A DNA stretch of 64,000 bases from Biomphalaria pfeifferi (Eukaryota), in the NCBI GenBank assembly GCA_030265305.1, contig JASAOG010000079.1:237331-301330 (forward strand), read 5' to 3'. Positions 1-35,404 of the stretch are shown here, in pieces. The position numbers were made by a program, and so were the translations under genes. The notes below the pieces were generated by a model. It was given only the letters and a program-made list of their open reading frames with translations. It was not told the DNA's origin and searched no databases. The number at the start of each line of letters is the position of its first letter. Position 1 is the stretch's first letter.

Positions 1-867
1 TTGCTGATCTTGTAGCACAAGTCACACCTACTGACCTTTGTCCGTTGTTTATTTTTATCAATACATATCATTACATGCCAAACAATCAGATGTAACATCT
101 GTGAGCAGGAATCACATGACTTTACCCCAATCTCATGGTTCAATGTTGCAAGGTGCTTCAGCAAGTTAGAAAGGATCCTACAAGTGCTACAGTCTAAGTA
201 GGAAGCCACATTTTTGTGTGTGTTAGAGGAAGCAAATGAAAGATCGTGTAAGGCTAAAGTTAGGCAAATGTTAAAAGCTTTTGGAATCTCAGTCCTCTCT
301 GGAACTCTGTTTGTCTGTGAATAAAATGCAACACTTATCAGAATATAAAATAGTTTATGCTTTTCTTATCAAGGCTACTTTTGTTTATTTAACATCAATC
401 ACATAAATAGCAGAAACGTTTTTTTTCTGCTTCACAGTGACATCTCTGATCTGGGCTAAGCAGAGCTCTACTGCATTTGTTTAGCTTAAAATATACTTTT
501 TCCTCAATTTTACCAATGTATGCTAGAAGTGGGTGAAATTGTTTATTTTGCATGTTTTTTTTTTTAATTAATTTTAACTAATGTACAGTGTTTTATTTGA
601 AAATAGAAAAAAAACGCTCAAGATTTTTTTTCTCTTTTGATTACAGATTAACATTTTAAAAATTACTTAAAAACATGCCTCGTCTATATTTAAGTCAATT
701 ACTATATCTATTTTTTCAGCAACTTAGTACCCTATACTAAAAATACCTTGACAATTGTAGGATAAATTTTAATTGAAAAGTAAAATCATTTATGTCACAC
801 AAAAATATTTGCTTTAAAAAAAAATCTGCAAAATGAGTTAAAAAACAAACTGAGATATTCAAGGTCA

Positions 868-1050
868 AGGATGGCTGCCTGGTCATGTGGTTTGCGCGCT
901 GGACTGTCGTTTGGATTTATTGATGGTCCCGAGTTCAAACCCTGCCCACTCACATCTCCTGTTGTCCTGCAGGAGGTTTAGACTAGGAAGTAATTATCTT
1001 CAACTCTGAAGGAACATCAGAAACAAGTAAAACAAACAAAATTTACAAAA
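868..1050 (+). mobile_element. tRNA-derived SINE, family B (ggctgcctggtc...gagttcaaaccctgcc...cttcaactctgaaggaacatc...ttacaaa)
   Basis: Five or more copies share more than 85% identity. Contains a box-B-like GGTTCAAACC. Confidence 0.85.
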
Positions 1051-1130: not shown

Positions 1131-1430
1131 TGAAGTTCCTAGCAGGTCACACAACTGCAGTATGGAAATAGCACCATGAATATTTTTAACACCATCTTGA
1201 AAAGGAGCTTCCATTTCATGGTTTGAAGTTCTTTGCTGATAAGTTCTTTCAGCCTGTTCTCTCAGTTCTTTGTGAAATGAATCTAATTTAGGAGCAGGGA
1301 GACTTGGAAAAAGTGGCAGCCTTCCAGAAAGTCTTTGTGGCCTACTTGGATCATCATCATCATCATCATCTTGTCTATTACGACCAGACTGACCATTGCT
1401 TTTTCCTCCTGAAGAAAATCTCCAAGCTCC
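1131..1430 (-). CDS. Exon of the same uncharacterised gene, 100 codons with poly-Asp tract (GAWRFSSGGKSNGQSGRNRQDDDDDDDPSRPQRLSGRLPLFPSLPAPKLDSFHKELREQAERTYQQRTSNHEMEAPFQDGVKNIHGAISILQLCDLLGTS). Continues beyond window start.
   Basis: Open frame bounded by acceptor ttttttaatag|GGA and a strong donor TCA|GTGAGT. Phase 0 to phase 0. Not in the ORF track because it lacks a start or stop codon. Confidence 0.6.
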
Positions 1431-2302
1431 CTATTAAAAAAAAAATATACCATACAGAATATCGCAATAACACAATATACTGATCAGATTATAGAAATTA
1501 AACATTTTGAAAATCATAATATAACTAATGCACAATTTAGTGATCAAAATACTGATAAAAAAGTAAAGAATTGCACATATTTTTTCAGTAATTACACAGT
1601 GTTCAAGATTTTCCAAGAAGACGCAGAAGTTGAATAAGTTAGTGGTATAAGAAGCTTGTTGCCATATGCACAGAAGAATATACTTTCTAAGTCATTATAT
1701 CCTTGAGGTAATAACATTTCTAAATGGTTTCAATTATTTCTTTGAATTTTAAATATTGATCTTTTAGGATTGTCCATAATTCTAACTCTGCTGCCAATTC
1801 TGCAATCCTGCAGGTTAGAGTTGAGACATACTCAATTTATTTATGAAGGAGTACTGAAACTTCAAACATTTAGTTAGTATTTTGTGTTAATTTTTTTGTG
1901 TTAAGCATTTTTTTCCCCAATGTTTTTTAACAATTAAGTTTTTTTGAGAAATTGTATTTGTCTTTAATTTTTTATGTTTATGAAGGCTTTTTGTTGAGGT
2001 ATTTATTTTGCAGCTATATTCTTTGCATTTCTTCAGATAACTTAATATTTATGATTAAACATTTCTTAAAATGTCATTTGTTACTTTTTATTTATATATA
2101 ATGTGATATAGATTAAAAGATTGAAGTGTAATATTTGCTGAGCATAAAATGTTAGTTTTGGTATTTATAAAATATTATATTAAGATTTTGTTATCTAAAA
2201 AACTAACTATAGATAATAAATATGCTGCTCCATTTATCATAAACAGCAACCATCAAAACAATTTAAAAAATCAATTATAAATCAGATAAAACATTGATAT
2301 AC

Positions 2303-2451
2303 CTGCTGTGTCTCATTTGATGAGCTACCACCAGAAGAATATCCTGAAGATTTGCTATTAGAACTGTTATCTCCAGTAGAATGGCCACGGACACTGAATG
2401 AGCAGTTTGTAGGCAGACCAGCTGGTTTGTCATTTGTATTCTTTAATATTC
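2303..2451 (-). CDS. Exon of the same uncharacterised gene (RILKNTNDKPAGLPTNCSFSVRGHSTGDNSSNSKSSGYSSGGSSSNETQQ)
   Basis: Within ORF 2282..2545. Acceptor tcattcag|GA, donor CAGCAG|GTATAT. Phase-compatible with the candidate donor at 2817. Confidence 0.55.
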
Positions 2452-2816
2452 CTGAATGATAAAAAAAGTAAAGATTTTTACTAATGAAGGAGTACATATA
2501 AATTACTGTAAATATAGATAGCAAAGTCTTTTTAAGACAATGCACATTTTGTGTCCATAGACAGCTTTAACTTTACAGAGTAATAGGGTGAATATATTTT
2601 TAAAATTATGCTAGACACTTTGTCTTGAAAAAGGGTATTGCTCTAAAAACATTTATTAATGATAAGCAGCATGAAAGGGAAAAAAAAAAAGGACTTGCAG
2701 TTCTAAGACAGTAAGAATAACATGTTGAGGTAACACACTAGATCAGCTAAGATAGACATCAGGACATCTTATACTAGTTTCTAACAAAGTACATTTTGAA
2801 AATAAAATAAACATAC

Positions 2817-4207
2817 TTTGAAACCATTGAAATGATGTAGTATTTCTCTTGTAGTTGTTCATTAAGTTGTGCTTGGGATGATTCATGGTTATTTTTGTGA
2901 AATAGAACTCGATATCTAGAAACATGTGTTTCTTTCTTGACCAAACTTCTCCATGGCGTTTTTTCCTAATTAAAAGCCCAAGTTTATTGCTATTACAAGA
3001 CTGCCATCTGTTATATCTTTTGTTCCAATAGGTAGTCTGTCCTCTGTATTTTTTTTTGTTGCTATTAAAAGCATGATTTCTACAATATTGCTTGTTCCTC
3101 TTAGTTGTCTGACAACCAAAATATTCCTTGCTGTCATCACCAGTCTGCTTTCTTCTATATTTCTTGTGCTTATTAATAGTCAATGCTTTGTAAAATTTTG
3201 TGTTTCTATTTGGTGTGTAACCTCTAAAATAGTTCTTGAAAAATGACATCTTTGTTTCTTTAGCATTCTTTTTAATTGAGTTTGAGCTTCTGGAACAGTG
3301 CAAACTTAATGGTTTAAGAGACTTAGATCTAGGTCTTTTAGAAATACTTTTTTTTAGAATGATTTGAACCTCTTTGATTTTCCTTATATTAACACTTGCA
3401 AGTAAAATATTAGATTTTTCTAGTGCTAAAGACTCCAGTTGTCCAGTAAAACATATCTTCTTGGAGTGATATGTCATTTTTGGTTGCACTCTAAAAACAA
3501 GATTGTTTTTCATAGTCTGATTTATTGTAGTGAAAGTGTTTAAGTCCACTGAGTCAGGCTCGTTATTAAGTTCACTCATGTAAAACGTTTGCTCCAAGCA
3601 GGTTAGATTTTCTTTTTGACTTACACTCTCTTTGTCCCAATTTTCAGTTTCTTCCAAATCTTTATTGATTTTATACTCAGGGTCATTAGATTCTTTGTTT
3701 GTAAAGAAGAAAGTTTTAATCTGAGTTTCATCTGCCCCTGGGTCATCAAATCTAATCAGCTTATCATTAAGTTCAATGCTTCCACTAGAACTAATCAGTT
3801 TGTCATTTAGATCAATGCTTTCACTAGAACTAATCAGTTTGTCATTTAGATCAATGCTCTGACTAGACCTAATCAGCTTGTCATTAATTTCAATGCTTCC
3901 ACTAGATCTTATCAACTTGCCATTTAGCTCAATGCTTTGACTAGAACTAATCAATGAGTTGTCATTCGATTCAATGATTTGTCTAGATATTTTTTGACAA
4001 TGACTATAATCTACTGCATCATAGGAATGGTGTAACATATAGTCAAATTTATGTTCTGATCTTGTGTGCAATTCTTTGTTGTCCACGTTTGTGTCATTAT
4101 GGAGCATTTGTTTTTTTATACAATTGTTAACAACATCTTTCAAACTGGAAGTCCTTTTAGCGGCATCATCTTTTGAACAGTAAATCTTCTTTGAATTGTC
4201 TTCCAAA
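2817..4207 (-). CDS. Large exon of an uncharacterised Ser/Lys-rich protein with 7 tandem 13-aa repeats (SSxSI[ED]LNDKLI[RS]) and a Lys/Arg/Cys-rich C-terminal region
   Basis: ORF track 2743..4206 (487 aa). The track's 'M' is a TTG codon, so this is not a true start. An acceptor taatacag|T lies immediately upstream and a candidate donor CAAA|GTATGT sits at about 2817. Repeat copies are about 39 nt at roughly 3760-3990. Confidence 0.55.
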
Positions 4208-6639
4208 CTGTATTACGAGAAAAAAATGTTAGAGAAATTAAGCAATATCAATTATTCAAGCATACAGTTTGAAGACAAAGTGAAATAACAAAAAACTAAA
4301 TCTCAAGCCTAGGAATACCAATAGCAATTATACCTATATGAATAATGTACCACATCACTCCATAAGACAAACCAAATTATAAGGAGAAAAAAATATTCTA
4401 ATCTAATAATAATCTAAATGATAGCTTTAGATATTTTATGATTCTTTTAGGTGGATTTCACATTTTTATAGGTAGACTATAAACTTCTGCACTCATTCTA
4501 AATTTTTGGACTTGACAAAATTAATAATAAGATGTTACACGGGTTGCGACGTGTTTGGATGTGACAATGTCAAGTTAAAATGTGACATAAATTAAAAATC
4601 AGTGTTTTCCCACTTTTTAGCTTCAATACCCCATGAGAATAAATGTCATTATATAAAAATAATTTTTCTCAAATTTAAATTCAGACATATAAACATGGAT
4701 GCAAGCAACAGAGCCCCATTTTTCCTGCAAGGGGGAGGGGGGTCGGCAACCCAAAAAAAAAAAATGCAAGCATGATGCCTCTTATATCTTCACAACATAA
4801 ATAAAACATTTAGCGCTATATATATATATATAAATATATTTATATATATATATGATATAAAGCTAATTTTCTTTTCAATAGATGTCAACCAATTAAAAAA
4901 TACTTTCAAGTATCTCTTAGGACAGAACTACTCAAAATTTTCCAGCTCAGATATCCTTTTACAACCCATACGATATTGGCAGACCCCTGACGCAGCCCGA
5001 TTTGTCTGCCTAAATCGCCTATTGGTAAAGTCACTAGCATAATCAAACTATCCGACCCCTGTGTATTTTTTGGCTCTGTGCTATTCATAATACAATAATA
5101 TACAAAGACTTTTCATTCACTGTTGTCGCATTGCTAATAATTTTCTGCTCATTTATGTATTATACATTTGTTTTACGTTCAAACTCTTTTGGTTCATAAT
5201 GATTTGTTACAAGATGACACTTCAGTTTAGCAGGTTTAAAACTTTTGTTCGATAACGCATTGAAACTGAGAAACATTGCTGCTGTTCACTGTTGCCTTTG
5301 CATGGTAGAAATACAAAATGTAAATATTCAGTAGCACATTTACATGGTGTGGCCTCTCTTACGTCATCATGTCTCATTTCATTTCCACAGTTTACATTAC
5401 ATACTTAAGCTTCAAAAATTTATCCATAATCTAACGGTTAGATGGGCATGTGAATAACAATTTAATAAACATAAATCACCACTGTATAATGTAATAATTA
5501 ATCATATAATGTGCATGATTAATAGCCAGACTGATAGTGTTGCTGAGTCTCAGGGTCATCGGTTGGAAACAGCAAAATGAAATTTGGCCTACTTTCTATG
5601 AATGGCATGATAAATATGAGAAATTAATAGAATGATGGATAAGTTTATAAAATAAGTACATTTGATTTTCATGCGCAAAATATAATTCTACTACAGGCCT
5701 GTTATTAATCATTGTTGTTTAGCCAAGATGTATCAACAATAGTCAGAATAGTTCGTAACAGACATATTAAACAGTAGTGAGTGGCGAGTTGATCATTATT
5801 CAATTTAACCGATCGGATTTAATTGGCTTTCAGTGAAGAAGTTATTATATAATTGTATAAATTTTCATCTTTCTGTGGACCCCCTCTATGGTCTTCTTGC
5901 GCTACCTCAGTGAGAACCACTGTTATAGGAAATAGCTGATTTAATTGATTGAGAAACACTGTAAAATAATGATAGTTGCTTGCAATTATCATGAAGAAAA
6001 AATTAGGAAAAAAAAAAGTTAAACTTTTAATGATGTCAAGAATAAGGTTGAAAAATTTTTTTAAAATTACCTTTGAAAATTAGTGCTACAGATGTGTACC
6101 AAAACCTTCTCATGGAATGAATGTATTATTTCGTTAGGCATGACTAACTCTGAAATCAGAAATGTTTCAAATAGAATGATTTTCTTTCTTTTTTTTTTTT
6201 TTTTAAAAAAGCTTATATCAACTAACTCTGTCTAACAGATTGAAAAATAAATTTGGTATGATCACAATACCCTTTCAAAGGCATACTATGTATGTATCAA
6301 TCAAGAACCTAGGATAACCTCTGTAATATGATAAGGCCTAAGCCAAGCCTCCTGTAGTGCCCTGGTAAAAAATCTGCCGTGTACCACGGTGCCAATTAGC
6401 TCCAATACAGTTCTAGTGACCTAACAGATATACGTCTCCCTGCAGCTTACCAAGAAAGAATTAAACAATGTTCCAATGTTCACAGCTTTATTTCACTTTT
6501 AAACACTTGACTGTGAACTGTCCATCACACTATCATAACATCTATTCTATTAAATTCTATTCCAATACATTATCTTAACATTTATTACACAGTTAACAGT
6601 CTTCCTTTCATTCTTTTTTTGACAATTTATAAAAGTGGA

Positions 6640-8789: not shown

Positions 8790-9280
8790 TTGGTAAGCCC
8801 AATAATAGAATATGCATCCTCTGTTTGGGACCCCTCAACTCAAGAGAACATTAAGAAACTTGAGCAGACACAAAATAGAGCAGTGAGATTCATAACAAAC
8901 GAATATTCACATTTGACTAGAGTAACACCTTTAGTAAACTCACTAAATTTAGAAAGCCTTCAGGACAGAAGACTCAAAAGTAAAGTAGCAATTATACATA
9001 AAACACTGAACCATAATCTTCAAATACAAAAAACAGAATATAATAAAATACTCAGAAAGACACAAAGATAAGGGCACATTCCTCGTTCCATATTCTAGGA
9101 CAAATTTATACAAAAGCTCCTTCTTCACTAGCGCTATTAGAGCATGGAATGGGTTGCCTGAGCTAGCCAGGAAAACCAGTTTAGGTCATTGGTTAATATG
9201 CATGACTAAATGTATGACGAGTAAGACGTAATCATCTTTTTTGAAATAACGTCTGTATCATATAAGATAAGATAAGCTGA
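8790..9280 (+). mobile_element. 5'-truncated copy of the same LINE family (RT C-terminus plus 3' tail)
   Basis: ORF 8790..9071 is near-identical to the C-terminus of the 50312 ORF (PIIEYASSVWDPSTQENIKKLEQTQNRAVRFITNEYSHLTR). The tail 'atgcatgactaaatgtatgacgagtaagacgtaatcatc' is present. Confidence 0.9.
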
Positions 9281-10269: not shown

Positions 10270-10660
10270 GGTGTATCGCATCACGAATGAAGAGATTAGA
10301 AACAGGATTTATACAGCTATTGGACCCCATGTTGACACTGACAAAAAAACGTAAACTCAAACTCTTGGGCCACATCATAAGGTCTTCAGAGGTCCCAAAG
10401 ACCTTCCTTCAAGGAACAATAGTAGGAAAAAGAAGAATAGGAAATGATGGGAAGACAACATCAAAGAATGGAAAGGCCTCTTATTGAATAAAATTCTATC
10501 CAAAGCAAAGGACAGAGAGGAATGGAGAAAGGCAGTTGACAGATGTTATGTGATGCCCCTACGGTTCGACGGACTAAGGGATAGGTGAAGGTATCTCGCA
10601 GAAGGGAAAGAAATTGTACTTGAATGACTGTGTTAGGTAAGGAGCTTGTATGGTGCAATT
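10270..10660 (+). mobile_element. RTE/L2-like LINE 3' terminus (…GKRRIGNDGKTTSKNGKASY…KAKDREEWRKAVD)
   Basis: Conserved 'KRR.GR…W.D…W.G…A.DR..WR' C-terminal signature. Two more copies at 17790..18000 and 44130..44385. Confidence 0.7.
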
Positions 10661-11267
10661 TTCTTGAGTGTGTTTTGAAACGTATTGTTTAGTGAGATTT
10701 GACTTCGTGTCCTGGTCACACACTTCCTACCTAAAAGTAAATATACAATGCTATACTTTGCAATTTTACAGTAGTTCTTGATGTAAAACCCAATATTTTA
10801 AAAAAATATTTCTAATCACACAGATTTATTGTTGTTTGTCTAGAATAGTCAATATCTATTACAAATTTAATTACATGACTGATCCAAACTTATTGATACA
10901 ATTTACTTCGTCTAAACTTTGTTCTTGTGTTTTTAAAGTATTTTTTGTTGTTGCTATTCTTGTTTTGTATTTTAAAAGCGATCACCGTAACATTTACGAG
11001 ATATCCCCTTCTTTCCCCCCTCTCTTTCCCAATTGGGCCAGAGCTAAAAGCATGAATTTGCGCTAAATAAAAACAAATGGTAAACTTATTTCTAATCGCA
11101 CAGATTTATTAGGCTATTGTTAGTCTATATGCCTATCTATTACACATTTAATTACATTACTGATCCAAAATAATTGATACAATTAGGCTACACTTAATAC
11201 AAGCTTTGTTGTTGTTTTTTTAGTATTATTTTAAAACATGTTTTTATTGTTTGAATGATAAACTGCG

Positions 11268-14057: not shown

Positions 14058-14250
14058 TTCTAGGACGGCTGCCTGGTCGTGCGATTTGCGCGCTGGACTG
14101 TCGTTCGGATTTATCGACGGTCGAGGGTTCAAACCCTGCCCGCTCCCATCCCCCGTCGTCCTGCGGGAGGTTTGGACTAGGAAGTAAACTATCTTCAACT
14201 CTGAAGGAACATCCGAAACATGTAAAACATTTTACAAACAAACACATTTT
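14058..14250 (+). mobile_element. SINE family B copy
   Basis: Near-identical to 868-1050. ORFs 14036..14323 and 13963..14265 are spurious translations of it. Confidence 0.9.
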
Positions 14251-15894: not shown

Positions 15895-16010
15895 TCAGGC
15901 AACCCATTCCATTCTCTAATGGTATTAGGGAAGAAATAACACTTTTACGAATTTGTCCTAGCATATGGAATAAGAAATGTGCCTTTATCTTTGAGTGTTA
16001 ATTACAAATT
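15895..16010 (-). mobile_element. LINE 3' fragment of the same family, inverted
   Basis: Reverse complement of '...cctagcatatggaataagaa...agagaatggaatgggttgcctgaatcagcc'. Confidence 0.7.
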
Positions 16011-16599
16011 ATCGCCACATGAAGTAGACTACTCGACGAGAGCCAATGACCTTCTCTACTGAGATTTTAATATTGTAACGATTCTCACTATCCGGGCTCT
16101 CTGCCAAGTGCTCCACACGACACCATCAACTCAAAAAACTTGACAACTCAGAACAAATATTCTCCGTTAATAACCCTACCGCCGTTTTAACTGTAGCACT
16201 GGCCTCTCCGCCTCGCCCCGGACTTGCACTGGGTTCAACTGTTCAGGACTGATTTCACACACTGGGCTCGTTGTGTCGAAGATCAAGACGCCGTCTTATA
16301 CTCGCGAGGTGTCTTAACAGTACTCTGTATCGAACTGTCGTAATGCGCCGTACAGAGCCACACCGCTGAACCGCACTGAACTGAACCAAACCGGGCTTGT
16401 AGTGAACTGTGCATGGGACCATGCGAACCTTCGCTCTTTATAAAGGGTCCCAGTTGACCGTCCAGAAACCGATGCTCGATCATTCTGGTTGATTAATGAC
16501 TACATCCGACGTGACTGGCCTGAGTAGTGTTCACATAATATGTTTCTTGAAACATCGCCAATCATCGCCGAGGACCGACGCAACTCGTCACGGTTGACC

Positions 16600-16945
16600 G
16601 CTCATCTATACCTATCAGCACCACTACCAAAGGTATAACAATATAGACAACCCGTAGATTTCAATCGATTTGATCTAGAACTATTATTTGCTGGTACAAA
16701 CCTCGCCGAAAGCAAAAGGAATGATGCGGCTTCAGAAAAAAAAAAAGAGGAGAAAGAGAAAAAAAAGCTATCATACAAGAAAGCCCTAAAACAGGTGCAT
16801 TCACTTGCACGAACTGTGGCAAACTTTCCCGCTTATGAATCGACTTGTTTAGTCACACCAGATTTTGCCCGGACCCAAGAGCAAACCGAAACCAGTGATT
16901 CCCTGGGCACATTCGTTGTCATTTAGGACAGAAGGAGAATATATA
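16600..16945 (+). mobile_element. CR1-like 3' end fragment (ESKRNDAASEKKKRGEREKK...FTCTNCGKLSRL-IDLFSHTRFCP)
   Basis: Lys/Arg/Glu-rich block followed by a C2H2-like finger and an (AT)-rich terminus. Confidence 0.6.
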
Positions 16946-20367: not shown

Positions 20368-20562
20368 ATATGGCTGGTCGTGCGGTTTGCGCGCTGGACT
20401 GTCGTTCGGATTTATCGACGATTGAGGGTTCAAACCATGCCCGCTCCCATTCCCCGTCGTCCTGCAGGAGGTTTGGACTAGGAAGTAAACTATCTTCAAC
20501 TCTGAAGGAACATCCGAAACATGTAAAACATTTTACAAAACAAACAATTTACCAACAACAAT
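20368..20562 (+). mobile_element. SINE family B copy
   Basis: Near-identical. ORF 20370..20564 is a spurious translation. Confidence 0.9.
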
Positions 20563-23104
20563 GAAATTATTTCCCAAAAGGAAAACCTTCAAGAAATAGC
20601 TTGAAGTGGCATTTCTAATTTAAAAATAGAGAAATTAAGTTATCTTTTTTTTTCCAAACAAGCTTATTTTCCTAAAAAGTCTTCCTATCCAAAAAATATG
20701 AAATGGTACAATTCTTTATCACATGGCATGTAAACAAACTTGATTATTCAAAATTAGAGCTTGCAGGCTGTTTACAAAATAGTTTTTGCATAATATCAAA
20801 ATGATTTGATAGACTAATTGGGTTGTTAAACCTAAGCTAGTGTTGGTACAGACTTTTTTTTTTCATGCAATAAAGTTTGTACAGAGGTCTAGAAGGAAAA
20901 ACTGAAAAAGATTGGTAATTGTTTCAATTGTTTTTATTTTTTGATGTTGGTTAGCCTCAGGGGTAGCATCGGAAATGCAGGTGCTCATATTTTGAAGATC
21001 AAGTACAGAGCAGGAAATCAAAAAAGATGAAATGAGTAGCTAGATTTACTAAAGCTGCCTTGCATTTTGCAAAAAATATTGAATCCACAATCTACTGTAA
21101 GACAATAATGTAAAAAAAAATTAAGAAAGTGTCTGCATTAAATATTTCTTATAGACAACTAAAATCCTAGTGAAGCACTTAAATCTACAAAACTTGTCAA
21201 TGAGAATAAGTTACCCATGGGCACTACATTAATTAGTGAAATGCAAAGGAATGAAAAGGCTGAGATTCATCTGTGTCACTGAAAAATACAACTGACTAAT
21301 GTAATGATCAAACATGTGTTATCAGACTGATTAATGCAATGGCTAATGTGCAGAACATAAAGTTTATTACTTCAAATTTTCTACACAAGCAATGGTTCCA
21401 GAAGAGTTGATTTATGCTGTTCATTCAATTTTATTTTTAGCTGAAAATATTTTGTTTATTAACTTTTCACTCCTATTTGATAATGCTTTACTTGAAGAAA
21501 AAGATTTAACAAAAAAAAAAAAAGACACTAATGTAAAGATTATGCATACAAGTGTATGTTGTCCTAGTTTATGTTATTCTCCTTGGCATGGAAATTAATA
21601 TTTACATGTGTGTGTGTGTATGTCTAAAAAAGTCTGTAGATAACAACTGTCCTTAATCCAGTTTATGGTGTGGCCCTATCTTCAGTTGTTTTTTTATCTA
21701 ACACATTTTGTACTTCCTAAGATTAGTACAAGAATAATAATCAGGTAGGCTACAATTTGATAACTGCAGGTTACATGTTTTGTTTAGAAGCCTATCACTC
21801 AATGATAGTAAGAATCCATCCATCACAGTAGATTTGAACAGTGTTATTGATAATATTAGTCTAACACAAATAAAAAATTTAACAATGACATTGAATGATA
21901 TCTGACACAAAAGAAATCAATATTGCAGGTTAACACTGGAATGTAGAAATTGATTGTTTTTTCAGCAAAGACATTCAATTGGTGGAGCAGAAGGTGCTTA
22001 AAGCATTTGCATTAATTAGTGTCCTTTTTTTTGAAACACATCTAGTAGTTTATGAAATTCTAAGTTTTTCTATGCTCTTTTAGTTATTTGCTTGCATTTT
22101 TTTTCAGAAAAACTAAACAATGTATTACATTCTTTCAGCTCTGATGATTTCATTCTAAATGTTTTTTTATTCACTAAATGATGAGATTTAAAAAATACAG
22201 AAACACAAGTAACAGCTTGTATCCTCAAGCTTTCATCATTTCTCAATTCGATAAAATATGTAAAACTTTAGATTGAAACACAAAATTCTTAAGGACACAA
22301 AATATACTGCTGACATAAAATCATTGTATGCGGTCATGAGGAGACAAGTTTTTAAAATTGCTGTTGGAACTCAGCAAACACAATTCAGCTCTAGTTGAGG
22401 CTGAGCCCCTAAGTTCTCTGCCATATAGCCCACCAAACATCAAACCAAAAAAAAGCAAACACATTAAGCCCAAAACAAAACTGAATGTATCATCAAAAGT
22501 TAGGGGATTTAACATCTGAAATTGTGTTTTGTTATCTATAAATAGCAAACCAGATTTTTTCGTTCACACACATACAAAATCAATTTCATTGGTCTGTCTC
22601 AACCTCAACAACCAGTTTCTTGTGACCAGTATAAACCTGTTTCTATTTCAATAAAATATCTTATGAAAATTTTTATTTTTTGTTCTGAATTGGATGTTAT
22701 TTTGATCCAGACATATGAGTCTTTATTACAAGGAGAAATGCTTCAACTTTTTTTCTAATGAAAAAAGTGATATAAAGTTAAATGACTGACAGCAAGATAA
22801 TCACAAAGTCAGGTTGAAAGCTATTTGACTGATAGCTGGTCACAACACAGGTAACTAAAAATAGCTAAGTCACTTAGTTCTATTTGAACTTTTGAAATTG
22901 TGATTGTAGTTTTACAATCAATCAACGAGAGGAACTTACACTAAGTATGTCATAGATAAGGTACAAATTTGGGAAATTCAATTTCAACCAAACAATAGAC
23001 ATACACACTAATACATGGCTGAGAATATTACAAAACAATAAATAATACATTTCTTGATCTACAGTTCCATCCAAACTTATTCATAGCTTTATGAAAGACA
23101 AAGA

Positions 23105-23479: not shown

Positions 23480-23600
23480 TACTAAAGGTTTTAATATCGT
23501 AATATCTATCTATATATCTATCTATCTATATATTTATATATCTATATCTATCTATCTATATCTATCTATCTATATATATCTATCTATATATATTGTACTA
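23480..23600. repeat. Compound (TATC)n/(TA)n microsatellite in the last attractin intron
   Basis: Direct reading. ORF 23361..23678 is spurious. Confidence 0.9.
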
Positions 23601-23602
23601 AC

Positions 23603-23756
23603 CTATAGCAACAAATGCACTACCAACTGCAAGCCCAGACTGTCCACAAGGAGCAAACACAGCATCACCAGTTGGTAGCTGTATAAATAGGGTAAGAATA
23701 GCCGCTTTGTGGTCAGCAAGAGGCTCAATGGCAATTGCTGAAGGTTTACTCATCAT
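23603..23756 (-). CDS. ATRN: ATRN-like exon: cytoplasmic tail (MMSKPSAIAIEPLADHKAAILTLFIQLPTGDAVFAPCGQSGLAVGSAFVAIG)
   Basis: ORF 23598..23792. Acceptor ttatccag|ATG, donor ATAG|GTTAGT. Matches human 'IALEPCFGNKAAVLSVFVRLPRG...PPPGQSGLAVASALVDIS'. Confidence 0.9.
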
Positions 23757-24399
23757 CTGGATAAATATGTAAGTAATATTAATAAAATACACTTAGTAAC
23801 AGGTAGACAAAATTCACCAAATTTAGAGATGAGCACAGTTCAGCCCAGAAAGAAATATTTAGTGCTGTTCAAAATACAAGCATTATATGATCTGAAGATG
23901 TTTAAGTCAGTTACGCTAGATTTTATTGGTTCTTTGCCATAAGTGCCATTTGTATGTTTAAAAAATATAATGCAATGAGTTGTCACAATTTGAGTACTAA
24001 TCTATACTATAAAGTAGAATGTAAGGCATATGTATGTGCCGAATAGAAATAATAACCGTTTGACCAAAATAAAACTTGGCATAAATGTTCCTTGGGTACT
24101 AACTTAGACCGTAGTGTATGTATTGTAGCCCTAAAACAAACTTAAGACCCTCAAAAAAAAAGTTGACCAACTCTATGAAAGTATGCTATTTTATGAATCT
24201 AGGCTATGTTTACCATGTAGACATGAGAAAAGATTGAAAGGATTTAGATCTGGATCTAATTTTAAGAACTACATTTTGCACATATAGTTTTCTACTTTGA
24301 CACATGAAAATACAAATTATAGTCTATTGATTTCATTATTTAATAAAATTAAGCTTCAAATTTGTGTTTCAAAAGCATTTTTACATAAATTCGTTCTTC

Positions 24400-24485
24400 A
24401 TATCTGCGAATTATGCATGACGCGTAGGACGTAATCATCTTCTTTTTTGAAGTAACGTCTGTATTATATAAGAATTTAGAATTCT
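24400..24485 (+). mobile_element. LINE 3' tail remnant
   Basis: Carries 'tgcatgacgcgtaggacgtaatcatcttcttttttgaagtaacgtctgtattatataag'. Confidence 0.7.
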
Positions 24486-24893
24486 TGACGTACATGCTCT
24501 CATTAGACATTACCCGAAAGGTTACACATCTCTCTATTCCTGGGTCTAAACCTCTAATACAACTTTTAAGATGATAGAACTTCTCTTTGCTAAGATAGTT
24601 TTATACTTTAACACATGAACATACTAATTATAGTCCATTCATTTTATAATTTAATCAAATTAACATTCAAATTTGTTCTTCTAAAGCATTTTTACATGAG
24701 TGCAACTCTATTCTTAATATCGTGTGAATTCAGGTCAATTAGCTATTTTTAGCTCCATTCATAATATTTTTTATTCATGAATTCATGCATTCGCTTTACT
24801 TATAACATTAATATTTTCTTTAATTGTTTCTAATACACTATATCAGTGACTACCGTATTTTTCGCCGTATAAGACGCACTTTTTCTTCTCCAA

Positions 24894-24925
24894 AACTGGG
24901 GGGGGGGGGGGGGGGGGGGGGGGAG
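24894..24925. repeat. G30 homopolymer followed by (GA)4
   Basis: Direct reading. Confidence 0.9.
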
Positions 24926-25497
24926 AGAGTTAGTGCGTCTTATACGGCAAATACACATTTTACATGCATTAAAACTGCCCCCAACTTTGTGTGGCGCTTA
25001 CTCGCAGTCCTTTCCTTATGCAGTGTGTGCTGCGGGCTGGATTTGGGGCACGTACTGCAGGCTGTGGTGACTTCTGTGACCCTCCCTGCACGGCCAGGCT
25101 GTGTGTGTTCGGGCTTCCCTCTCCCTCCTATAGCGCGCCATGCCCCCCTCCCGACAGTCTAACCATGTGCTGCACAGGCATCATGCTGAGCTTACTGCCG
25201 GTACACACCGCCCTCCCTACGTCATAATGTGCCGTCTGGGTAGATCACAGACAACGTGTATGGTGTATGTGAGAAAGTGATCAGGCGGACCAACCAGTAC
25301 AGTATTTGGTTCAGAATCTTTTTTTTCTAGATTTTCCTCCTTTAAAATTGGGTGCGTCTTATATGCCGGAGCGTCTTATACGGCAAAAAATATGGTATAT
25401 CAGCAATATGCAAGTTAAGACCCGCGGACTGGGGGTAATATCTGTCTAGTGCATTTATAAAACTAAAATATTTTTTCTATCAAAGAATCTAGTCTAT

Positions 25498-25790
25498 GGA
25501 GGCGCGGTGGCTGAGCGGTAAAGCGCTTGACTTCCGAACCGGGGGTCCCGGGTTCAAATCCTGGTGAAGATTTGGATTTTTAATTTCGGGACCTTTGGGC
25601 GCCTCTGAGTCCACCCAGCTCTGTTGGGTACCTGACATTAGTTGGGGAAAAGTAAAGGTGGTTGGTCGTTGTGCTGGCCACATGACACCCTCGTAAACCG
25701 TAGGCCACAGAAACAGATGATCTTTACATCATCTGCCCTATAGACCACAAGGTCTGATAGGGGAACTTAACTTTTTATAATCTAGTCTAT
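25498..25790 (+). mobile_element. SINE family C copy
   Basis: Shares 5' and 3' ends with 11268. ORF 25489..25683 is spurious. Confidence 0.9.
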
Positions 25791-25954
25791 TGATGGGAAA
25801 TGATGACAGACTGAAATTTTAATGTCTTTGAAATTCACAACCACTAAACTAGTTGACAGCTCAAGAACATCCATTTTACAGTGACCTTGACATATATTAC
25901 CAAAGTCTAAGCTGTTATATACCTTACATATGATATATTACAAACATAACTTAC

Positions 25955-26095
25955 TTTTTTTCTTCTTCGTAGCACTGAATCCAGATGATCTTTTTTCTCT
26001 CCAGATATTATCTGATTGTGAGTCTTGTGATCTATTTCTACAGATATAGTGGAGAATGGGCGACTGGCCATTTGTTGCATTTCCACTATCAATTG
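25955..26095 (-). CDS. ATRN: ATRN-like exon: cytoplasmic tail with MASRPF motif (QLIVEMQQMASRPFSTISVEIDHKTHNQIISGEKKDHLDSVLRRRKK)
   Basis: ORF 25907..26092. Acceptor caacccag|CAATTG, donor AAAAAA|GTAAGT. MASRPF is the signature motif of attractin-family cytoplasmic tails. Confidence 0.9.
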
Positions 26096-26507
26096 CTGGG
26101 TTGAAACAAATAAGCAATGATGGGTTTAAAAAAAATTAAATTTACAGTATGTATAAAAAAAAATTAAGTTGAAACTAGTATTACAAAAAAAAAAGTTGAA
26201 ACAAGCTAACTATCTAAGGAGTTAAAACAAGTACATAATAATATAAACTGAGATGTATAATATTGTTAGATTTTAAATTAATTTTTCCACATAATTCTGG
26301 TTCTTTTTGTATCTAGACATAAACATTAACCTTTTGGGATATAGGATTCTTAAAAATGAGGAAACCTCATTTATGCTAATAGTTTAACTTTAAAAAAAAA
26401 AAATATGTATGCTAACATTTTTTGTTGTACTCTTAGAATTTAGAAGCACTTACAACCTGAAGGTAACTTCAAACAAAGGTTGCTGATTAAAGAATGAGAT
26501 ATTTTTG

Positions 26508-26510
<3 letters not shown>

Positions 26511-26582
<72 letters not shown>
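26511..26582. repeat. (AT)n microsatellite, about 35 units
   Basis: Direct reading. Confidence 0.95.
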
Positions 26583-26590
<8 letters not shown>

Positions 26591-26699
26591 TCTGAAATTA
26601 ATATGACTAAAATATTTTATACAAAAAGTTATGAGTTGAAAAAAAAAAAAAATTTTTCTTAAGAAGCATGAGTAAATAATATTTGATGAAATCAAATTC

Positions 26700-26920
26700 T
26701 AAGGCCTTCAGCCATGGAGCAAATATGGATCATCTCAATGAAATGGAAACATTAGCTATGTTCTGACCAATATCACCCACACAGCACTCCCTCTCTGCCC
26801 AACTGATGTATCCAAAGGAACAGTAAGTGCTGATACAGTTTAAAAGCAATGGCATTGCAGTCTCTGTCAGGGTGTATCACTGTGTGCTGCTAACTGCCAG
26901 CTCCTGATTTCTTTTAAGAT
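26700..26920. repeat. Unclassified interspersed repeat (family D)
   Basis: Shares about 200 bp with 40330-40545 ('...ctgcccaactgatgtatccaaaggaacagtaagtgctgatacag...ctgccagctcctga'). ORFs 26877..27071 and 40321..40506 are spurious translations. Confidence 0.7.
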
Positions 26921-27206
26921 TGTCTTCCGAAACCTTTTCAAGGGTAATAAGCCTCTCCTGTCTGAAGCTACTGGTGCCAGTTACAGGCATTAGCCCTTCT
27001 ACTGTTAGTGTTAGTTCAGCTGGACCCAATATCTGAGCCACATTAGGTTCAGCAGTTGGACTAGTTGTCATAGGTTATTTGAGATGCATGCCATTCGAAG
27101 CATTTTATAGGTAGTGGAGTGCTTGTATCAATTACCACTTCCAGCAATACATTTTTTTTTAGTTTTTTTTATTAAATATTAACATGTAAAATATAAGTTG
27201 TCTAAC

Positions 27207-27285
27207 CTGTCTTCTCCTATAGCTGTCATACTTATGTTTTATTTTCCATAATGCAGCTGCAATCAGGAGCAAAGATAAAAAGCAG
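27207..27285 (-). CDS. ATRN: ATRN-like exon: transmembrane C-terminal half plus stop-transfer (CFLSLLLIAAALWKIKHKYDSYRRRQ)
   Basis: Within ORF 27159..27470. Acceptor gtttgtttcag|C, donor GACAG|GTTAGA. Matches human 'SCFLSLLLVAAVVWKIKQSCWASRRREQ'. Confidence 0.85.
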
Positions 27286-27504
27286 CTGAAACAAACAAAA
27301 AAATCAATATATCCCAAAATTGGCAAAGTTAAAAATAAAATAATCAGAAAAAGTAGCCTAAGTATTTTTGCTTGTTGATTGATTTGAAAAGGGAATAACC
27401 TTATGTAAATCCATAGTGTAATTTTTTTTTTTGGCAGAAACACTAACCAAGAAAATAAATGATAATACATTAATGATTTACATTTTTTGGTTATTTATTT
27501 TGTT

Positions 27505-27652
27505 TATTTATATATGTTTTGAATGTTCCTTCAGAATTGAAGTATATTACACAAAACCTCCACCACGATGGTGGGGAATATGAGGTTGGGTAGGGTTCAA
27601 ACATGGGGCTATCAGAATGACAGTCCAGAGCACATGACAAGGTAGCCATACA
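27505..27652 (-). mobile_element. SINE family B copy (inverted, truncated)
   Basis: 'gttttgaatgttccttcagaattgaag...gggttcaaacatgggg...gtccagagcacatgacaaggtagcc'. Confidence 0.75.
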
Positions 27653-30535
27653 AATATATTTGCACTAACTTGAAAATAATAATACCCCCCCGCCCTCCAA
27701 AACTAGTTTTCATATTTTTCCCACAGAGTATCATTCCATGGATAATCATCATAAATTTAAGATAAACTTTTAAACATTAGTATACACATAATGTTTTAAC
27801 AAATGATAATTTTATCAAATCTATTAGAAAGATTAATTTATTTTAAAAAAAGGTTCTTCAAAAATAGAATACTATGTATTTTACACAACTTTATCATAAA
27901 AAGCTAATCAACTAATCAAGAATAAAGTCATCACAACTAATAGGAATTCTGCTTTATGATACATATTATATATAATTTATTTTTATGTTTAATTGACTTG
28001 CTTTGATTTTAAATTTGTTATGGCTAAAATAATTTTGAATGGAACATCATCATTTACAACAGCAACAGGTCACTTATCTATAGTGACACATGGAAATACC
28101 AACACATGCAATATATAGAAACATCAACCTTACTATACAATGAAAACAAAAATTAAACACAACTATCAGCCAACCAAGGAAAGAACACAAAGGTCAAGGT
28201 TAAAAAAAATTACACTAGCAAGGTGTCAACGGACAGTTCTAGGAGCACAAGCTAATGTTCAGTTCTGAGGTCACATAATTAATGAAGCACAGTTTTCAGG
28301 AAAACATACTAATTAACAGTTTTTAAGTCAAAGGAACATGAACATGGTAATTGTTGACAAACAGTTTGCTCTAGTCACATACTAAAGGACAATGCCCAAG
28401 GAAAAGGGTTATGGTCATTCTCAAGTTCATAAGTTATTAAGCCAATAATCAGTTCCAAGGACACAAGTGACCTAGTTTCCAGGCCATTGACTAACAAAAA
28501 AGTTCACCTGTTCCCAGGTCAAATGTTAATAGATCTTGGATCACATGTTAAAAATGTTCCTAGGTCAAAAGCTATTATTTAAAATTAATTCATTTTTTTT
28601 ATTTTCTAAGGAATGTTATTAAAAATATTATTTTCTTGGTGTGTATATATATATATTTAGATAAATGATAGTTTTGAAAAATAATATGAAAGATAAACAC
28701 CTTAAAAAAATATAAATTTTTAAACTAATTTGTCGAAAAATACAAGTAAAAAATAATCAAGCAAAGATTTAAGCAAGACTTTATTTTAATCATTATAGTT
28801 TAAGACTTTATTTTAATCATTATAGTTTTCTTACTAATAGTTACACCAAAATAGTGGTTTAATTCTTCAGTTATTTATGATCAATGTGGTCCTACCCATC
28901 TTTCATTAATTATAGTTAAATTTTAAAGAATTGAACATTGTAAACTATTTATCAAATGATTGTAAAGAAAACTTAAATGTAGGATTCTGTCAGCACTTAC
29001 CTAAAGAAAATAATAAAAAACCTAAGCAGATTGATTTTTTCAGGCTGAACAAAAGAAATCTGTAAAATAAGGCAAACAATTGAACAAATGGACACATGCA
29101 ATGGTGTGTTAGTAGAAAGCATGGATTGAGGGCATTTATCTAGGACTGATTCCATTCTCAATTAGCAAGTTTGAAAGAAATAAAAATACCAGTATTGTTG
29201 AAGTTTTATCACATTTAAAAAAATTAATTAATTTTCTTTGGGCATATAAGTGCATAAAGGAAATAATATCAAGAAAAAGGTAATTTAAAAAAATGAATTT
29301 CAAATTTTCATGATAATGGATGCGGAAGGGCGTTTTTATGACTTCTTTTGAGAAGGATTGCTAAGACTTGTGTTGGTTTCTCATTATGTCTGTTATTTAA
29401 AAAATAGCAATTGCTTGTGTACAGAGTAAAATAAATGAAATGAATCCAAGATAAAGCTTAGTTTATTGCATGGATGGGTTTTTGTAGCCAACTCAAAAGT
29501 TTACAGACACAGATACATTTTCCATTTTCTTTACTGGTAAGCAATGTGTGTATGTGTGTAGGGGGAGTGTAAAAGCCCACACCCAACTCAAACACACACA
29601 CACACTTCAACTTTAAAATGCAACCAATCACCTACATGCAGTAAACTAAGCCATGCCACAATCATGGAAACAATAATGTCACAATCATGGAAATAATAAT
29701 GCCAAAATGATGGAAACAAAAACATGAAAAGAAAATAGCAAACACAACAATAACTGGGAAGTCAGAGCAATGGGAAATCAGCCTTTGACAAACACATTGA
29801 AAAAAAAACAACTGTTTGCCAAGGTTGTCATCCCAGTTTACCTACCTAAAAAATGTTACAAAAAAGTGAACTAGATCTATTTTTGGAAACTGTGAAAAAG
29901 ATATCTGAAAAAATATATCCAATAGAGAGTATTATGTTCAGTGATGTACCTTTAGTTTAACTGTTTCAGACATAGATCAAGGATGAATAGCTGACAAAGA
30001 CCAAAGGAAATATGAAATAAAGGCAAATCATAAAATCGGAAAAACAGAGCCAAAATCAAAGGCATCCTTTTTTTTAAAGCCTTAAAGTTGTTTGTACACT
30101 CTTTGGTTAAGGAATTGCAGTCAATATACAGTTGTTAAAAAAATTAATTTAAGGATTATTTTACAAATATTCTCAATAAACAGAAAATTCCCAACAGATC
30201 TATTCTGAAATATGCCCTGAAACAGGGTGGGGCTTTAAGATCCCAACAGATATTTTAAAATATGCCCTGAAACAGTATAGGGATTTAAGCAGATCTATTC
30301 TAGATTAGCCCTAGTAGGGATTTAAGCAGATCTATCAAAAAGTGTCAGACTTTCATATCACAACAGGTCTATTAAAAGAAAACTTTTGTTTTACAGAGTG
30401 AATAATCCATTTAGGTGCATTCTTGGCCATAATTTTATTTGTTTTCTAAAGAAGTCTTAATTTGAAAAAAAAATAATTTTAAAGGCAGTTTCAAGATTCT
30501 AAGATGGTCAGTATGAAATAAGTCTACAATTTTAC

Positions 30536-30687
30536 CTGCAACATAAAAGGTGTTTTAAAGTTGAAGACATAGACCAAAAAAGTTGTGTTCTCCTTGCCTC
30601 CAAACACATGATTCTTATGTTCAAACTTAGTGCGGAAATATTCACAGGGTTTCATAGAAGTGTATTCTTTTTCCTCTGGAAATGTTT
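30536..30687 (-). CDS. ATRN: ATRN-like exon (KTFPEEKEYTSMKPCEYFRTKFEHKNHVFGGKENTTFLVYVFNFKTPFMLQ)
   Basis: Within ORF 30524..30724. Acceptor tgtgtttcag|AA, donor TTGCAG|GTAAAA. Matches human 'IKEYKDSFSNEKFDFRNHPNITFFVYVSNFTWPIKIQ'. Confidence 0.8.
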
Positions 30688-30798
30688 CTGAAACACATTT
30701 GTAAACATTAATAATAACAGCCAAGTTATTTTATTGTCATGTATGCATAGAATATTTCAAGTAACAAAGCTACATAAATGTGTAAAAAATATACTTAC

Positions 30799-30868
30799 TA
30801 GATTTATATGTTATGTTTATTAAGGCCCCAGTTGAACAATTTAAAGTAAAGTCAACATCTCTGTCACT
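30799..30868 (-). CDS. ATRN: ATRN-like exon (SDRDVDFTLNCSTGALINITYKS)
   Basis: Acceptor ttgactcag|A, donor TCTA|GTAAGT. Matches human 'NRDLDMFINASKNFNLNITWAAS'. Coordinates ±3. Confidence 0.65.
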
Positions 30869-32199: not shown

Positions 32200-32650
32200 T
32201 ATTGGTTTTCCTGGCCAGGCTTCCCATTCCATGCTCTAATGTCACTAGGTAAGAATTTAAGGCTTATAAACACTTTCACAGATTTTGTTCTTAATGTAAT
32301 TTCATTTCTTTTAGCCAATGTAGTAAAACCATCAAATGCTCTGCTGGTGTTAATGCCTTAGAAATGATGACAGGATCCAAGCACTTTTCAAAACTGGAAA
32401 TCAAATTGTAATGAAGCCCATGCAAAAACTCCTGAGCTACTGTTTTGTGGCATTTTACTTCTCAAGAAATTTCTCCCTTTGCAACATCTCATGTGACTAA
32501 AGAAGCCAATCCTTGATACACAGCTGCAGTCACAGTTTGGACATCTGTAATCACAAGACACTGTAGTATTTTCCCCCTTTTTTCTACTTCTGGTATGTAT
32601 GCCATGTGCAATCCAGATGTTTCCTTTATGCATGCTCTCCATCTGGATCT
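32200..32650 (-). mobile_element. LINE 3' fragment with C-terminal zinc finger (CPNCDCSCVSRIGFFSHMRCC) and a family tail
   Basis: ORF 32388..32642. The tail 'ccattccatgctctaatgtcactagg' at about 32215-32260 is the reverse complement of the LINE-family tail. Confidence 0.75.
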
Positions 32651-32739
32651 ATCCAGTGCCTCATTTTCCCAACTGTTGGTTTACATTTTGGCTGAGCTAC
32701 TTTTATAAACAATAATACTTTAAGCATCAACCACTTTAA

Positions 32740-35358: not shown

Positions 35359-35404
35359 CTGAAAACAAAGTGCTATTTAAGTCACATTTAATCTTTAAAC
35401 AGAA

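Follow-up and report, generated by a model that had tools for sequence, protein, structure and literature searches.

The long open frame analysed here belongs to the N-terminal coding exons of an annotated, very large NIK/Tpl2-like kinase and is no new gene. The segment at positions 1131 to 4207 of the window, by which we mean the whole 64,000-nt stretch of Biomphalaria pfeifferi DNA, very probably represents coding exons 2–4 of one annotated B. pfeifferi gene, whose product is a serine/threonine kinase of 1821 aa from the NIK/Tpl2 (MAP3K14/MAP3K8) clade. The conceptual protein of 741 aa that is encoded by the five exons in the window is 100% identical to residues 1–741 of GenBank entry KAK0054209.1, the annotated 1821-aa B. 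pfeifferi protein, and about 94–96% identical to RefSeq LOC106050931, its B. glabrata counterpart. Gene identity and exon structure of the KAK0054209.1 locus are thereby established. A sequence-only reading of this DNA had described a novel gene of unrecognised family. For the gene this label fails, because the exons belong to KAK0054209.1 with its NIK/Tpl2-clade kinase domain; for the N-terminal region it stands, as no described family was matched there. The finding is therefore mostly a clarification, the “novel gene” being the N-terminus of an annotated kinase. LOC106050931 is mentioned nowhere in the literature searched.

All five exons are located on the minus strand. Coding exon 1 (6071..6141) runs from the ATG to MPNEIIHSFHEKVLVHICSTNFQ plus two nucleotides of a Ser codon and ends at the donor AG|GTAATT; its translation is identical to residues 1–23 of KAK0054209.1. 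An acceptor (tttcag|AGTTAGTC) is found directly upstream of the ATG, and therefore one more 5′ exon is implied. The window and the locus in B. glabrata are collinear, and by comparison with the B. glabrata gene start the 5′ end of the gene would lie near window position 6.8 kb. For this reason a CpG-rich block at 16.0–16.9 kb was dropped as promoter of the kinase gene. An assignment of the exons to the 3′ end of an upstream attractin-like gene was also given up; the cytoplasmic tail exons of that gene end at about 23.6 kb. No Rfam family was matched in the window.

Coding exon 2 (2817..4207; acceptor aatacag|T, donor AAA|GTATGT) corresponds to the 487-codon open frame at 2743..4206 that had been noticed from the sequence, and contributes 463 codons plus split codons (residues 24–488). 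With 489 codons from stop to stop it is the longest open stretch in the window; in mononucleotide shuffles (n = 50) the longest stretch averaged 126 codons and never exceeded 163, and a stop-free run of this length has a chance of about 2e-15 at the stop frequency of the window. Exon 2 is followed by the Ser/Gly/Asn-rich exon 3 (2303..2451, residues 488–537), exon 4 (1131..1430, residues 538–637), which holds a poly-Asp tract and in which a conserved region predicted to be helical begins, and exon 5 (1..314, residues 638–741+), which is cut by the window start and, by comparison with B. glabrata, lacks about 60 nt. The junctions 2817→2451 and 2303→1430 proposed earlier are in phase, use canonical AG/GT sites and reproduce the annotated protein exactly. 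The TTG that opens the frame was rightly rejected as a start codon, since an acceptor occupies 4208–4209 and an ATG exon lies upstream; exon 1 at 6141..6071 thus supplies the upstream coding sequence that had been postulated. The gene is indeed partial, as exon 5 runs off the window start. The chain does not end at “…LLGTS” as had been assumed, but goes on into the exon starting at 314 and past the window start. Exon 1 lies at 6.1 kb, exon 5 reaches the edge of the window, and the kinase domain and the C-terminal region are located past the window start.

In the B. glabrata orthologue the Pfam domain Pkinase (PF00069) was detected with an E-value of 1.7e-42 at residues 1035–1289, outside the window, and KAK0054209.1 carries the same domain. 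The best PDB matches of the full-length B. glabrata orthologue were NIK (7e-39) and MAP3K8 (3e-35), the next kinase being MAP3K2 with about 88 bits. When the kinase domain alone was used, MAP3K8 (129.6 bits) and eleven NIK sequences (127–129 bits) were the only matches below 1e-25. Judged by these kinase-domain scores, the protein belongs to the NIK/Tpl2 clade of MAP3Ks. As to the closer relative within the clade, the scores of NIK and MAP3K8 are tied (best 129.0 vs. 129.6 bits). The GenBank name of the B. pfeifferi protein is of the Tpl2/MAP3K8 type, an automatic best-hit label. As to a NIK-type helical extension directly N-terminal of the kinase domain, alignments of the full-length orthologue to NIK constructs take in query residues 972–1035 and thus begin some 60 residues ahead of the kinase domain; the pre-kinase segment alone found no NIK match among PDB sequences at E ≤ 1, and the C-terminal 182 aa matched no PDB sequence.

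NIK (MAP3K14) of vertebrates has a length of roughly 950 aa; its N-terminal arm is long, non-catalytic and includes a basic tract, and its C-terminal region is long as well. The snail kinase shares this layout, but it is about twice as long, its N-terminal arm resembles nothing outside Biomphalaria in sequence, and its first 741 residues lack a canonical TRAF-binding motif. The stretch AISILQL in exon 4 may resemble ISIIAQA, the TRAF3-binding motif of NIK. Vertebrate Tpl2 (COT, MAP3K8) measures about 470 aa, is compactly built and has a short N-terminus. Its kinase domain scores level with that of NIK, but neither the 1000-aa extension of the snail protein nor its 13-aa repeats nor its C-terminal region of 550 aa has a counterpart in Tpl2. 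The snail architecture (1821 aa) is thus far from the compact Tpl2, although length alone does not decide orthology.

The N-terminal region was compared to sequence databases by several approaches. A Pfam scan of the N-terminal 741 residues revealed no family, and PDB sequence searches gave no match for exon 2 or for the region of exons 4–6. In a phmmer search of exon 2 against 1.84e9 representative proteins the sole real match was a Biomphalaria cluster, while the other four matches were unrelated repeat proteins. Among them, homology with a bacterial protein carrying 13-aa repeats (E = 1.2e-4) was considered and dropped; this match is most likely due to convergence of short repeats. At the level of sequence similarity the large exon is consequently detectable in Biomphalaria only, among 1.84 billion representative proteins. 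Further homologue searches with the 717-aa conceptual protein and with 136 aa of exons 4–5 stayed empty, and these negatives are unreliable because near-identical Biomphalaria proteins were missed as well. A search with full-length KAK0054209.1, in which the 8000 candidates sharing most words were scored, returned the B. glabrata orthologue only, and we suspect that low-complexity words had swamped the candidate list.

As described earlier, the C-terminal part of exon 2 is rich in K, R, N and Y (residues 301–487, net charge +40, pI 10.6). This basic segment (2818..3378, minus strand) contains four K[KR]x[KR] motifs, compared to 1.8 expected. At about 3129..2986 a stretch of 24 aa is duplicated in tandem in degenerate form; the duplication scored 50, and none of 500 shuffles exceeded 44. 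In the 741 residues none of the TRAF-binding, beta-TrCP-degron, SIM or bipartite-NLS motifs was enriched. The generic TRAF2/3 consensus and that of TRAF6 had 0 matches, and the beta-TrCP motif was likewise absent. AF2 assigned exon 2 a mean pLDDT of 31.5, in a single-sequence run that does not separate disorder from an orphan fold. The region of exons 4–6 reached a pLDDT of 46 (single-sequence); both values are too low for fold inference, and exon 4 was modelled as all-helical with low confidence. A Foldseek search of the exons 4–6 model against the PDB found designed helical repeats only (E ≥ 0.18) and was disregarded.

Comparison with B. glabrata revealed that exon 2 is the fastest-evolving part of the protein, with dN 0.026, dS 0.083 and an omega of about 0.31. 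Within the exon, omega was 0.16–0.17 in the repeat and mid segments and 0.49 in the basic segment. At the amino-acid level the pre-kinase segment is fully identical (100%) and the kinase domain nearly so (99.6%), compared to 94% identity for exon 2, and dN in exons 4–5 is about six times lower than in exon 2. At the nucleotide level exon 4 is 99.7% and exon 5 99.0% identical, exon 3 differs by 4 substitutions in 149 nt and the introns are 93–98% identical. The aligned coding sequences contain three indels (12, 39 and 3 nt), all in frame (3/3), two of which (12 and 39 nt) are located in exon 2. By these substitution and indel patterns the large exon qualifies as translated sequence under relaxed purifying selection.

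The 13-aa repeat in exon 2 is encoded by a minisatellite of 39-nt units that keeps the reading frame; according to the gene models, species and strains differ in the number of its units. Instead of the seven repeats reported from the sequence, the window holds five full 39-nt units at 3751..3945 on the minus strand (SSQSIELNGKLIR, SSGSIEINDKLIR, SSQSIDLNDKLIS, SSESIDLNDKLIS and SSGSIELNDKLIR), preceded by one degenerate unit, RQIIESNDNSLIS, at 3946..3984. The perfect spacing was confirmed, with a period of 39 nt and zero indels (TRF: 3752..3953, 5.2 copies, 84% matches); TRF takes the array to 3953, and a second repeat search agrees. The consensus S-S-x-S-I-[EDK]-[LI]-N-[DG]-K-L-I-[RSG] holds as well. 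Whether the repeat number varies had been raised as a question, and 5, 6 or 7 units were indeed found across Biomphalaria gene models. B. pfeifferi has 5, the models from two assemblies of B. glabrata have 6, and that of B. glabrata BB02 has 7; the last is an older draft-assembly model with one unit of 12 aa, so that an assembly artefact is possible. The DDDDDDD tract corresponds to (ATC)7 at 1350..1370 in exon 4, and poly-Asp length across gene models is 7, 8 or 9 residues. In DNA, units 1 and 2 match those of B. glabrata exactly; B. glabrata has one unit more, and the arrays of the two species differ by only 5 substitutions. Divergence between units ranges from 3 to 23%, and the array is therefore old and slow-moving rather than hypervariable. 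Variable columns among the units are distributed 3/2/7 over codon positions 1/2/3 (p ~0.07, hand binomial calculation), and units up to 9/39 nt apart share the encoded core SIxLNxKLI. Together these patterns hint weakly at constraint on the repeat peptide itself.

Several other readings of the locus have to be weighed. The N-terminal exons might make up a gene of their own or yield a separate short product of about 900 aa, in which case the long models would be chimeras of the annotation pipeline. Such a product is suggested by KAI8777110.1 of B. glabrata BS90 (902 aa, “hypothetical protein”), which ends just past exon 6 by reading into the intron. However, both parts are joined by three gene-model sources, namely RefSeq, where three isoforms are listed, the GenBank annotation of B. 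pfeifferi and the UniProt model of BB02. In addition, the frame stays open across the exons, about 18 tblastn segments across the B. glabrata locus connect the N-terminal to the kinase exons with contiguous residue ranges, and neither a stop codon nor another called gene is located between them there. We consider a separate product very improbable. The N-terminal exons and the kinase exons appear to constitute one gene, a join that rests on gene models. The initial idea of a stand-alone, novel Ser/Lys-rich structural or mucin-like repeat protein of unknown family has in its favour that the N-terminal 741 residues match neither a Pfam family nor a PDB sequence, but it is extremely improbable, as the exons are identical to the N-terminus of the annotated kinase and a cytoplasmic-type kinase domain follows downstream. 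Nor does the proposed mucin-like module agree with the sequence: by inspection, residues 1–23 with MPNEIIHSFHEKVLVHICSTNFQ do not resemble a hydrophobic signal peptide, and the array consists of just 5 short units with 4 Ser in 13 residues and no Pro or Thr. A satellite or transposable-element frame is contradicted by the absence of a second copy in the first 7 kb and of Pfam matches, by the collinear, single-copy B. glabrata locus and by the omega of 0.31. An intronless retrogene does not fit an exon 2 that is spliced in phase at canonical sites.

A different question is what exon 2 does within the kinase gene. The repeat array and most of the exon could be a functionally indifferent spacer, kept open only for the downstream kinase, in which copy number drifts neutrally and no binding or regulatory role exists. 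This is a serious though minority possibility. Indeed, the substitution identity of exon 2 (96.5%) does not exceed that of the flanking introns (93–98%), exon 2 is the least conserved part of the protein, has neither homologues outside the genus nor a confident predicted structure nor known short motifs, and the unit number varies freely among gene models. On the other hand, omega is not 1 but 0.31 overall and about half of that in the repeat and mid segments, differences between units concentrate at third codon positions (7/12 variable columns), and the encoded core is kept by units that differ considerably in DNA. At the opposite end, the minisatellite and the poly-Asp run might act as a functional, polymorphic docking or regulatory module, with copy number tuning the output of a NIK/Tpl2-like immune kinase. 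We regard this as very unlikely at present; if true, the differences of 5, 6 and 7 units among B. pfeifferi and B. glabrata strains would feed into differences in NF-kappaB/MAPK immune signalling and possibly into schistosome compatibility.

Returning to the kinase gene as a whole, the N-terminal extension of about 1000 aa may be viewed as a non-catalytic regulatory arm. The N-terminus of mammalian NIK contains a negative-regulatory and a basic region, and by analogy the snail arm would govern stability, localisation or autoinhibition rather than catalysis. The exon 2 product is probably largely disordered. It would open with an acidic, Ser-rich part bearing the 5–7 copies of a short hydrophobic/Ser motif, which could serve as multivalent docking or phospho-regulated sites, followed by the +40 basic tract with its NLS-like K[KR]x[KR] motifs, while exons 4–5 would start a conserved helical domain. 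A regulatory or docking role of the extension and its repeats is what we infer from this arrangement. Slippage during replication or unequal exchange would presumably account for changes in repeat number, and variants that break the frame would not be tolerated, given that the kinase is encoded further downstream.

Biomphalaria snails transmit Schistosoma mansoni, and their immune signalling is therefore studied for vector control. To our knowledge NIK/Tpl2-type MAP3Ks have hardly been described in gastropods. In an in-silico survey of Aplysia neither NIK nor Tpl2 could be identified (PMC9334734). The present locus indicates that Biomphalaria possesses a NIK/Tpl2-type kinase whose N-terminal arm, about 1000 aa in length, is restricted to the genus and evolves fast, and the copy-number-variable repeat of this arm offers a handle for strain genotyping and for dissecting the regulation of the kinase.

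The array resembles coding minisatellites (in-frame VNTRs) in disordered regions of regulatory proteins in that the 39-nt unit is a multiple of three, the units are without internal indels, copy number differs between closely related genomes (5, 6, 7), and a neighbouring homopolymeric codon run, here poly-Asp with 7, 8 or 9 residues, varies too. It differs from them by being short (5–7 units) and by its age and slow turnover in place of hypervariability.

The longest open stretch of the window lies in AT-rich animal DNA (GC about 30-38%) with SINE and LINE debris. It spans 489 codons from stop to stop and includes an ORF of 487 codons (2743..4206, minus strand). In 50 mononucleotide shuffles the longest open stretch averaged 126 codons and never exceeded 163, and the chance of a 489-codon open run is ~2e-15 at the observed 0.067 stops per codon. 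Most of this frame is exon 2 of a minus-strand gene. The ATG exon (6141..6071) encodes MPNEIIHSFHEKVLVHICSTNFQ and is followed by the donor AG/GTAATT, while exon 2 (4207..2817) is bounded by the acceptor aatacag/T and the donor AAA/GTATGT. Exon 3 (2451..2303) and exon 4 (1430..1131) show canonical splice sites with consistent phase, and exon 5 begins at 314 (acceptor tcacag/ACAAAC) and runs off the window start, ending ~60 nt past it as judged from the B. glabrata mapping. The junctions proposed by the sequence-only reading were thus borne out, having canonical sites and consistent phases and agreeing with the deposited gene model; that reading was largely correct, but the chain continues beyond the end it had suggested. 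Compared with B. pfeifferi, B. glabrata has ~800 nt inserted just 5′ of the ATG exon (6142..6300 vs. 10413..11192 of the B. glabrata locus L001). RefSeq isoform X1 of B. glabrata begins two codons further 5′, in an additional exon (MLK/LVMPNET), and the window retains the matching acceptor, tttcag/AGTTAGTCATG, intact.

The five-exon conceptual protein (741 aa) matches residues 1-741 of the B. pfeifferi protein KAK0054209.1 without a mismatch, which marks the window as DNA of this species or of one that cannot be told from it. The gene is already annotated, and the genome was described previously (PMC10075465). An exhaustive phmmer search with exon 2 (2818-4206, minus strand) against 1.84 billion representative proteins gave one real match (E 6e-276, 93% identity), the 1839-aa B. 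glabrata orthologue, which is the RefSeq ‘uncharacterized protein LOC106050931’ and is not mentioned in the literature searched. The other four matches (E 1e-8 to 3e-4) were unrelated repeat proteins touching the repeat zone. Exon 2 is thus restricted to the genus as far as public proteins show, on the strength of one phmmer search and depending on the planorbid proteomes in that protein set. A word-based homologue search, in which the 8000 candidates sharing most words were scored, a list probably swamped by low-complexity words, returned the orthologue alone; two other searches by this method missed even near-identical Biomphalaria proteins.

The full-length orthologue contains a single Pfam domain, Pkinase (residues 1035-1289, 1.7e-42). 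Compared with PDB sequences, it matched human and mouse NIK/MAP3K14 best (7e-39), followed by MAP3K8/Tpl2 (3e-35), with the remaining kinases at ≤88 bits. The kinase domain alone gave a tie (MAP3K8 129.6 bits, NIK 129.0 bits). Based on these matches the protein is placed by sequence in the NIK/Tpl2 clade, with no assignment of orthology to either, and the GenBank name ‘MAP3K8’ is an automatic label. The NIK alignment of the full-length query opens ~60 residues ahead of the kinase domain; this segment alone did not retrieve NIK from the PDB sequences, and the C-terminal 182 residues had no match there. In a survey of Aplysia neither NIK nor Tpl2 was identifiable (PMC9334734). The protein maps to B. 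glabrata in ~18 tblastn segments across ~21.6 kb, which together with the end of exon 5 just off the window puts the kinase domain outside it. Our finding covers only the non-catalytic N-terminal arm. The region holds the second to fourth exons of a MAP3K gene in the NIK/Tpl2 clade. Its reading as a new gene without a recognised family was right only in part: the kinase is annotated and belongs to a known clade, and its arm is uncharacterised and lineage-specific.

Tandem Repeats Finder detected a single array at 3752..3953 (period 39 nt, 5.2 copies, 84% matches, no indels), and a separate repeat search recovered the same spacing. In reading-frame register the array comprises five full units at 3945..3751 (minus strand), in order SSQSIELNGKLIR, SSGSIEINDKLIR, SSQSIDLNDKLIS, SSESIDLNDKLIS and SSGSIELNDKLIR, preceded by a degenerate unit, RQIIESNDNSLIS, at 3984..3946 (minus strand). 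The repeat consensus proposed from sequence was right, but the seven units claimed are five full units and one degenerate unit in this window. The poly-Asp run is (GAT)7 at 1350..1370. Five units are present in B. pfeifferi (window and KAK0054209 alike), six in the RefSeq isoforms of B. glabrata and the BS90 model, and a provisional seven, one of them of 12 aa, in the UniProt BB02 model A0A2C9M6T7 from an older draft assembly; poly-Asp length is 7, 8 and 9 in these models, respectively. Units 1 and 2 have the same DNA sequence in both species, orthology extends to units 3, 4 and the last, which differ at 1-2 positions, and the extra unit of B. glabrata is closest to the last unit. The array is thus a coding minisatellite that stays in frame and differs in copy number. 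Slippage or unequal exchange is the standard mechanism of copy-number change in such arrays, and the unit number here would shift in this way.

From 15228 down to 1 the window is collinear with L001. The split between B. pfeifferi and B. glabrata has been dated to ~3 Myr ago (PMC10075465). Substitution identity is 96.2, 97.8, 93.3 and 96.4% in the four introns and 96.5, 97.3, 99.7 and 99.0% in exons 2, 3, 4 and 5, respectively. By the Nei-Gojobori method exon 2 has a dN of 0.026 and a dS of 0.083 (omega 0.31), with omega of about 0.16-0.17 in its repeat and middle parts and 0.49 in its basic part; dN is 0.004 in exons 4-5. All three indels of the aligned CDS (12, 39 and 3 nt) are in frame, and protein identity is 94% for exon 2, 99.6% for the kinase domain and 100% for the pre-kinase segment. 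These values indicate that exon 2 truly codes for protein and evolves under relaxed purifying selection, translated and weakly constrained as read from the comparison. No other part of the protein changes as fast, and almost all of the protein's length variation falls in this exon; exons 4-5 open a well-conserved region.

The repeat and the next 125 residues are acidic (pI 4.6-4.8), and residues 301-487 form a strongly basic tract (net +40, pI 10.6), with four K[KR]x[KR] motifs vs. 1.8 expected. The basic tract contains a degenerate tandem duplication of ~24 aa (~3129..2986, minus strand; KEYFGCQTTKRNKQYCRNHAFNSN and KKYRGQTTYWNKRYNRWQSCNSN) with a local alignment score of 50 vs. a shuffle maximum of 44 (n=500). 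Exon 3 consists of 34% Ser+Thr. Single-sequence AlphaFold gave a mean pLDDT of 31.5 for exon 2 with no residue above 70, which is compatible with disorder and, lacking an alignment, is no proof of it. The region opened by exons 4-5 was modelled as all-helical at a mean pLDDT of only 46, and Foldseek found nothing better than E 0.18 for this model in the PDB.

The N-terminal part of mammalian NIK carries degradation and TRAF3-binding motifs, a basic nuclear-targeting tract and a negative-regulatory domain. The layout of the snail arm is comparable, with a basic tract and then a conserved, predicted helical region before the kinase, but the arm lacks sequence similarity to the NIK part, and a consensus scan of the 741 residues for TRAF2/3, TRAF6 and beta-TrCP motifs found none. 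We infer that this extension of the kinase serves regulation or docking. The main alternative, with a real though smaller chance of being true, treats the repeat as a neutral spacer. The repeat units diverge within the array by up to 9/39 nt and keep the core S-I-x-[LI]-N-x-K-L-I; third codon positions account for 7 of the 12 variable columns (p ~0.07, binomial calculation by hand), an excess that suggests constraint on the repeat peptide, short of establishing it. By reasoning alone, the unit resembles a pair of short beta-prone stretches (SIEL, KLIR) with an Asn-Gly/Asn-Asp turn between them and a Ser-rich linker. A 252-aa, putatively bacterial protein (P0003) matched marginally (E 1.2e-4, whole library) through a 13-aa tandem repeat, NNELLTVSGSVTL, of equal period and similar pattern to the snail unit NDKLIRSSGSIEL (3751..3945); convergence of a short strand-turn-strand repeat is probably the better explanation than homology. 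A separate product of the N-terminal exons, of the kind given by the BS90 model (902 aa), is a minor and improbable alternative.

Directly upstream of the kinase gene lies a large multi-exon attractin/MEGF8-like gene (~58050..23600, minus strand). Its open stretches, all on the minus strand, include EGF, a CUB-like exon (56734-56501), a beta-propeller of Kelch type (44.1-42.8 kb), PSI domains in several copies (40.2-37.0 kb) and laminin-type EGF (35.4 kb). A transmembrane segment (~27.3 kb) is followed by the motif ‘MASRPFS’ of the cytoplasmic part (~26.0 kb) and by a tail exon (23792-23601). Pfam reported Beta-prop_ATRN-LZTR1 (2.9e-46) as well as EGF and PSI. A CpG-rich block at 16000..16900 (GC 0.43-0.48 vs. 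~32% background) with a TATAAAG-like element and no obvious coding exon lies ~9 kb upstream of the inferred 5′ end of the kinase gene, outside L001 as compared. A non-LTR retrotransposon ORF of 412 aa (50312..51550, plus) was judged by inspection to encode reverse transcriptase (RT); related RT fragments occur elsewhere (46136..46990, minus), and the C-terminal peptide turns up again at 8790..9071 (plus). One short interspersed element is found at 865..1034 (kinase intron 4), 14063..14244, 20371..20572 and 53580..53762, and in L001 at 1374-1564, 2531-2694, 16187-16386 and 41192-41324. A second family lies at 25498-25775 and 11375-11522 and takes in a tRNA-like sequence called by ARAGORN at 25491-25573; both families look like tRNA-derived SINEs. 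Beyond the window, the next gene called downstream of the kinase in B. glabrata (L001, 38797..42925) carries the Pfam domains QTMAN_N and glycosyltransferase-1.
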